Assembly: GCF_003334255.1 (NCBI RefSeq) | Contig: NZ_QOWU01000002.1 | Source of the DNA: Escherichia coli | GTDB taxonomy: Bacteria; Pseudomonadota; Gammaproteobacteria; Enterobacterales; Enterobacteriaceae | Direction: 5' to 3' (one strand) | Length of the DNA stretch: 64,000 nucleotides | Part shown: positions 24,130 to 24,140 of the stretch, piece by piece | How positions within the stretch are numbered: position 1 is the stretch's first letter | How the letters are laid out: each line of letters opens with the position of its first letter | Made by a program: the position numbers and the translations under genes | Notes under the pieces: model-generated | What the model saw: the letters and a program-made list of their open reading frames with translations, nothing else | What the model was told of the DNA's origin: nothing | Databases searched by the model: none

Positions 24130-24140
24130 CCCCCCCCCCC
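24130..24140. repeat. C11 homopolymeric tract in the yaiO-frmR intergenic region
   Basis: Eleven consecutive C residues read directly from the sequence. Confidence 0.9.

Follow-up and report, generated by a model that had tools for sequence, protein, structure and literature searches.

Why does an Escherichia coli genome hold eleven consecutive cytosines between two genes, and does the length of that run matter to either of them? The question is raised by the spacer between yaiO and frmR in the window, the 64-kb stretch of E. coli DNA that we analysed as a whole. A sequence-only reading of this stretch had described the run as unusually long and prone to slippage, and had proposed that variation in its length could alter the termination of yaiO transcription or the geometry of the promoter upstream of frmRAB.

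The tract and its surroundings

The tract consists of exactly eleven C residues, with G before them and T after them, as given both by reading the sequence and by a census of runs, and the letters around it are GCCGATTAG-CCCCCCCCCCC-TTTCCTCTTTG. Its first C is base 47 beyond the TGA of yaiO (24081-24083), with 46 bases between the two, and its last C lies 132 nt before the ATG of frmR (24272-24274), with 131 bases between. The placement originally given for it, 47 bases past the yaiO stop and about 130 bp before frmR, was thus confirmed by the sequence itself, and the identity of the two flanking genes was confirmed by the list of open reading frames and by the RefSeq annotation of matched genomes. 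The tract begins 16 nt 3' of a stem-loop that lacks a U-run. The coordinates of these features are collected in the table.

Table. Features of the yaiO-frmR region, in window coordinates
Feature	Position	Strand	Basis
yaiO CDS, outer-membrane beta-barrel protein	23310..24083	+	ORF list, RefSeq annotation under matches
GC-rich stem-loop, no U-run	24092..24113	+	fold, −16.8 kcal/mol
C-rich, G-poor, predicted unstructured segment including the tract; candidate rut	24114..24190	+	composition, fold
C11 mononucleotide repeat	24130..24140	+ (G11 on minus strand)	sequence and run census; length-polymorphic site
frmRAB promoter with tandem FrmR operator half-sites (ATATACTATAGGGGGGTAT / ATACCCCCCTATAGTATAT)	24195..24247	.	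promoter scan; PMC5146963
frmR CDS, 91 aa	24272..24547	+	ORF list; RefSeq 276-nt frmR in every matched genome

The claim that the tract is unusually long was borne out. It is the longest homopolymer of the 64-kb window, in which the next longest run of any base has 7 residues and no other run of C or G exceeds 6. A base-composition model predicts 0.024 C-runs of at least 11 per 64 kb; the same model gives approximately 1-2 G/C runs of such length per 4.6-Mb genome, so that on a genome-wide scale chance is a possible source of one. The model also predicts about 17 C6 runs in the window, where 3 are observed. Since observed run counts drop much faster with length than the composition model does, the tract is a true outlier. 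G:C runs of 8 have already been termed outliers in one E. coli mutation data set (bioRxiv 10.1101/2021.08.23.457454). On the minus strand, window positions 24114-24140 read as G11 and, 10 nt further on, GGG; a G-quadruplex motif of three tetrads (GGG-G-GGG-G-GGG-N10-GGG) needs a run of at least 11 and is found in about 1.5% of genomes.

yaiO is the last gene of a same-strand run, yaiP-yaiX-yaiO, which is uninterrupted in the window (21553-24083) and contains an intact yaiX-like ORF (22598-23308). In K-12 an IS2 element lies inside yaiX (retrieved locus 5261-6591), and in Symbioflor G1/2, G6/7 and G8 an IS1 element lies at yaiX (retrieved loci 3039-3736); the operon looks like a hot spot for insertion sequences. 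A YaiO-family gene with approximately 90% identity to the 3' end of yaiO is also carried by plasmids (NZ_JBYUJG020000002.1 and 11 other plasmid places). A full-text literature search for yaiO plus frmR returned nothing on the tract, and a search for yaiO alone returned nothing relevant. A difference at frmR/yaiO between laboratory stocks is mentioned in PMC7858067, in which it is left unspecified and the supplements carry no detail of it.

Length alleles across E. coli and their pace of change

We compared 5,426 complete E. coli genomes with a 291-nt spacer query, which matched on the frmR side in 5,416 of them and over the full spacer in 4,281. Alleles were counted among 4,349 spacer-carrying records with exact-allele BLAST queries, each composed of a 40-nt left flank, Cn and a 20-nt right flank. 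About 89 partial alignments at 100% identity inflate the band of at least 99% identity; records with less than 80% coverage were therefore subtracted, and this correction was checked on the C11 and C13 rows. Pure runs were found at C7 (~1,177 records), C8 (~857), C9 (~315), C10 (~982), C11 (56), C12 (7) and C13 (1). The CCCCTATCCCC allele accounts for at most 172 records, a figure that is an upper bound only, and the remaining records carry other interrupted forms such as CCCCTACCCCC, or divergent ones. The length distribution is bimodal, with modes at C7/C8 and at C10. This bimodality could reflect selection, or instead ancestry and sampling, and the C10 count is inflated because K-12 laboratory strains were sampled.

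Alleles were also read directly from a ten-sequence E. coli alignment together with W3110, DH10B and Symbioflor. The window itself has C11, whereas MG1655, W3110 and DH10B have C10, NEB10-beta, DHB4 and FDAARGOS_1261 have C9, MS15047 has C8 and E62 has C7. Symbioflor G1/2 and G6/7 have C12, and Symbioflor G8 has C13. Interrupted forms were read in UTI89 (CCCCTATCCCC) and DETEC-E1005 (CCCCTACCCCC), and a divergent form, GCCCCTC, was read in 98198. Even reference genomes disagree at this position, K-12 with its C10 and UTI89 with its interrupted form, while the flanks of the tract are near-invariant in the alignment and the differences between alleles amount to whole repeat units.

Metagenome contigs, scanned independently for the pattern, yielded 65 matches, with C6 in 1, C7 in 18, C8 in 16, C9 in 9, C10 in 5 and interrupted forms in 16. 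Among the latter, CCCCACCCCC is present on four different flank haplotypes, and several of the metagenome contigs have a coverage of just 1-3x; C-to-A changes that recurred, or short-read errors within the run, could account for this allele. Across E. coli genomes and metagenome contigs together, pure runs of 6 to 13 C were found. The proposed tendency to slip thus has its counterpart in a length polymorphism that extends from C6 to C13 and includes interrupted variants. Invariance of the tract across strains, which the sequence-only reading had named as the outcome that would speak against it, is not what the genomes display, because length varies among strains and even between near-clonal genomes.

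Some of the calls that differ by a single base are probably assembly errors. Because MG1655, W3110 and DH10B are all C10, the C9 calls in NEB10-beta and DHB4 probably fall into this category. In the DHB4 assembly the right half-site of the FrmR operator (window 24231-24236) also reads C5 in place of C6, which is probably a long-read homopolymer error and would be an operator mutation if real. Given that miscalls of this kind occur in the collection, the true length in the window might be 10 or some other number, with the eleventh C being a homopolymer miscall. We regard such an artefact as highly improbable, since C11 occurs in 56 independent complete-genome records, 9 of which match the 10-kb haplotype of the window within about 5 SNPs, and since C12 and C13 exist too. 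Moreover, allele length follows the flank haplotype, as random error would not, indicating that the variation is real and not the product of sequencing error alone.

The tract changes faster than substitutions build up in the surrounding 10 kb. Over 10 kb, Symbioflor G8 (C13) differs from G6/7 (C12) by 1 SNP and the tract, and LR-64-2 (C10) and VE-F10 (C9), which were isolated on different continents, are otherwise identical. The window and YJ4, which also has C11, differ by 5 SNPs in 10 kb. The C11 allele is found on two different haplotypes, that of the window and that of O121 GTVSS-020, the latter of which has its YaiO protein in common with the C8 strain MS15047.

Length is nonetheless structured by ancestry. 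The K-12-like flank haplotype has C9-C10 in metagenomes and reaches C13 in genomes (C9-C13 overall), the common flank haplotype has C6-C9, and in the metagenome sample the B2-like flank haplotype has no alleles other than interrupted 11-mers. Because length tracks the flank haplotype in this manner and the K-12 reference genomes MG1655, W3110 and DH10B are C10 in three cases out of three, the tract behaves as a microsatellite and not as a high-frequency phase-variation switch. As cited in PMC11754648 and in bioRxiv 10.1101/2021.08.23.457454, the indel rate of E. coli climbs exponentially with run length, and such a rise fits the microsatellite behaviour of the tract.

The nearest outgroup in which yaiO adjoins frmR is E. 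whittamii, and because a YaiO scan of species-representative genomes yielded three loci only, the outgroup evidence is that of this one species. At the position of the tract E. whittamii has CGCCCCAAACAC..., which we read as GATTAG-CGCCCCAAACACTCTTC-TTCCCTC and which contains no homopolymer. Within E. coli, the members of the B2-like series CCCCTATCCCC, CCCCTACCCCC and CCCCCACCCCC are each 11 nt long, and a divergent haplotype has GCCCCTC at the same position. From these sequences we infer that the pure C-run is derived within E. coli. Either an interrupted C-rich 11-mer (from CCCCTATCCCC to CCCCTACCCCC to CCCCCACCCCC) may have lost its interruptions or a short C-run may have grown, and the pure run may then have started to slip.

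The spacer of E. whittamii also holds extra sequence (retrieved locus ~3345-3365) with GATATCCCCCCACAT, in which a C6 run flanked by AT-rich sequence is reminiscent of an FrmR half-site. Relatives of YaiO are present in Citrobacter sp. FP75 and C. braakii at 80% and 59% identity, respectively. The roughly 300 nt past these two genes bear no likeness to the E. coli spacer or to the FrmR operator, and the yaiO-frmR junction therefore appears to be Escherichia-specific.

The hairpin, the C-rich segment and the frmRAB promoter

The GC hairpin without a U-run that had been noted upstream of the tract was recovered by RNA folding. It has a 7-bp GCCGCCC/GGGCGGC stem and an 8-nt loop and is followed by CUUCCCUG. 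The hairpin is invariant in the ten-sequence E. coli alignment and is kept in E. whittamii, where a C-to-U change preserves pairing (−15.8 kcal/mol). As modelled, it is likely to be a protective 3' stem-loop of the yaiO transcript. A scan for intrinsic terminators across 23900-24400 found none.

The 78 nt after the hairpin (24113-24190) are 41% C and 10% G, which ranks them within the top 0.06% of 78-nt windows when both strands are counted. The tract within them is predicted to be unpaired at each length from 7 to 13; base-pairing to the operator's G6 or to the hairpin was considered as a role for the tract and was discarded on this account. The C fraction of the segment runs from 35% with C7 to 42% with C13 and remains at 35-42% in all alleles except the 98198 form (27%), and the corresponding segment of E. 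whittamii is 38% C and 10% G without any homopolymer. The conserved property of the region would thus appear to be C-rich, G-poor, unstructured RNA directly past the hairpin.

A RhoTermPredict-style rule is passed by the stretch 24093-24170 with a C/G ratio of 2.9, although this rule is lenient, its basic test being passed by 19% of all windows. Downstream, matches to the pause consensus GGN8YG begin at 24208, 24301 and 24327, and a strong palindrome of 19 bp forms a hairpin at 24195-24247, but motifs of these kinds are common. Neither yaiO nor frmR is listed in the 3'-end and Rho data of the Adams 2021 and RhoTermPredict supplements, where coordinates near 380,0xx are likewise missing. Dar & Sorek 2018 (PMC6061677) described stable stem-loops that have no U-tract and are followed directly by rut sites. 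The yaiO end resembles the Rho-dependent terminators of that study in having a stable U-less stem-loop right after the stop codon, an unstructured segment rich in C over G and no intrinsic terminator. Because of this shared architecture, the region is probably a Rho-dependent terminator of yaiP-yaiX-yaiO that would insulate the FrmR-controlled promoter, and of which the tract would be no more than the piece richest in C. Unlike typical rut sites, which are simply C-rich, the putative yaiO rut holds a pure homopolymer.

The promoter of frmRAB (Pfrm) has a −35 element TTGACA at 24217-24222, a 17-bp spacer and a −10 element TAGTAT at 24240-24245, and this is the sole promoter-like site that the scan returned in 23900-24400 (24217-24245). 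The FrmR inverted repeat is centred at −29 (Denby et al. 2016, PMC5146963), which, together with the position of the operator palindrome, puts approximately 110-122 bp between the tract and the frmR start site downstream of it. It therefore lies outside the frmRAB promoter, the promoter spacer and the FrmR operator.

About 1,080 of the 5,426 complete genomes are without the tract altogether and have kept both promoter and operator. In O157:H7 (retrieved locus 2934-3020) fbpC abuts frmR and homology with the window begins at ~24180, and in an IS1-deletion type, of which Ecol_AZ161 is an example (locus 2850-3003), tauA adjoins and homology begins at ~24169. Both breakpoints are located between the tract and the FrmR operator, and both types keep promoter, operator and frmRAB. 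In approximately one fifth of E. coli genomes, the DNA that precedes frmR is different. In addition, the lengths that coexist differ by more than half a turn of the helix, which makes strict phasing with any upstream element unlikely. The suggestion that tract length alters the geometry of the frmRAB promoter is thus unsupported, given the distance of the tract from the start site, the many tract-less genomes that retain promoter and operator, and the coexistence of alleles that differ by more than half a turn.

Substitutions within the −35 element of Pfrm were seen in two other C11 strains, an A-to-G change at 24220 in O121 GTVSS-020 (TTGGCA) and a C-to-T change at 24221 in E423 (TTGATA). A permissive Rfam scan of 23800-24600 returned only sub-threshold matches to eukaryotic miRNAs and snoRNAs, none of which touches the tract. 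Those at 24180-24263 (mir-992, MIR5512 and others) are far below gathering scores and have no biological meaning, as such weak matches arise from the long palindrome of the FrmR operator.

What the tract may do

The explanation that we consider probable is that the tract is a near-neutral slippage microsatellite in the 3' tail of yaiPXO, inside a putative Rho-type terminator. The poly(C·G) run would gain and lose single bases through replication slippage. Located in the untranslated 3' tail of the yaiP-yaiX-yaiO transcript, it would probably add cytidines to a Rho loading site, with yaiO transcription ending before or within the frmR promoter. Because Rho loading depends on composition more than on exact length, changes in length are most likely neutral or nearly so. 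An effect of tract length on yaiO termination, the other consequence that had been proposed, is plausible from the sequence only by way of Rho loading, and a role of the tract as a genetic switch is unsupported by the evidence found.

Contingency loci such as the poly-C promoters of Bordetella fim genes and the poly-C/G promoter spacers of Neisseria opc and porA are the obvious comparison, and the tract is like them in being a long, variable G:C homopolymer in an intergenic regulatory region. Frequent reversible slippage might therefore switch or tune frmRAB or yaiO, as it does in promoters of Bordetella, Neisseria and Haemophilus, and this idea gains from the fact that G:C runs of 10-13 are of the type that slips and that length differs among strains and between near-clonal genomes. 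Unlike those loci, however, the tract is outside promoter spacer and reading frame, being located neither between −35 and −10 nor in the operator or an ORF, and the promoter persists in the genomes that lack it. No annotated feature lies over the tract in the C11, C12 and C13 RefSeq records listed, and the only ORF that crosses it (minus strand, 23966-24169) cannot survive, because the length differences among natural alleles are not multiples of three and break its frame; we therefore rejected a coding role. The alleles are also stable over laboratory sublines of K-12, in a species that is proficient in mismatch repair, and the tracking of haplotype together with the uniform C10 of K-12 indicates that turnover is slow relative to true phase variation. 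A contingency locus is accordingly very unlikely. A direct contact with the repressor, in which G11·C11 would be a low-affinity upstream site for FrmR that stabilises repression, is suggested by the G6/C6 tracts of the operator half-sites and by the presence of a G/C run near a promoter controlled by a CsoR/RcnR-family member, approximately 90 bp upstream of the operator centre. Repressors of this family are proposed to read G/C tracts through A-form-like DNA shape and perhaps to wrap flanking DNA (PMC5146963). Nevertheless, the tract has no flanking inverted repeat of the kind that defines type I CsoR/RcnR (FrmR) sites in that study, its flanks being GATTAG and TTTCCT and not ATAC/GTAT repeats, and its length exceeds the 3-8 bp of the tracts in such sites. 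It varies widely in length and purity, is absent from O157:H7 and IS1-deletion genomes with intact frmR and operator, in which it is evidently dispensable, and is absent from E. whittamii, all of which makes an auxiliary FrmR site extremely unlikely.

Among activators of Rho, poly(C) is classically the best, and the segment around the tract has an extreme excess of C over G. It might thus be argued that the Rho loading site has its functional core in the tract and that tract length is under selection, with longer runs loading Rho better and insulating frmRAB. Termination strength does climb with the C/G ratio, if slowly (RhoTermPredict paper, PMC6407284). We nonetheless consider selection on length unlikely, as the entire range from C7 to C13 shifts the C fraction of the 78 nt by so little, 35-38% C is attained with no homopolymer at all in E. 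whittamii and in the interrupted alleles, and in K-12 the tract has stayed C10 even though the upstream operon is broken by IS2. A bolder proposal is that tract length sets Rho loading on the yaiPXO transcript, so that slippage would cause heritable, reversible, strain-level read-through into the FrmR-controlled Pfrm, and that, from 11 residues upwards, RNA polymerase could additionally be blocked by a G-quadruplex built from the template-strand G-run and the GGG at a distance of 10 nt. We regard it as a distinct long shot. If true, the tract would act as a mutational rheostat on the basal detoxification of formaldehyde, in a species that is believed to have no simple-repeat contingency loci.

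As a microsatellite, the tract belongs to a known class, in which a perfect single-base repeat of about 8 bp or more suffices for slippage. Mononucleotide repeats of variable length in the non-coding DNA of E. coli have reportedly served as markers for strain typing, and the tract is a new and unusually long case of them. It resembles the typing repeats in being an intergenic single-base repeat that differs by single-base steps among strains, in having near-invariant flanks and in having an allele length that carries phylogenetic signal. Unlike typical members of the class, it is at 10-13 bp at the extreme long end of G:C runs, and it is among the longest G:C homopolymers in E. coli. For genome comparison this makes the tract a predictable hot spot of indel calls, at which assemblies of K-12 derivatives already disagree, and possibly a useful fast-evolving marker within lineages. 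For the biology of termination, its alleles (pure C6-C13, interrupted and absent) constitute a natural series with which the share of a cytidine run in Rho loading may be gauged. The tract would be of greater importance to E. coli only if its length changed read-through into frmRAB.
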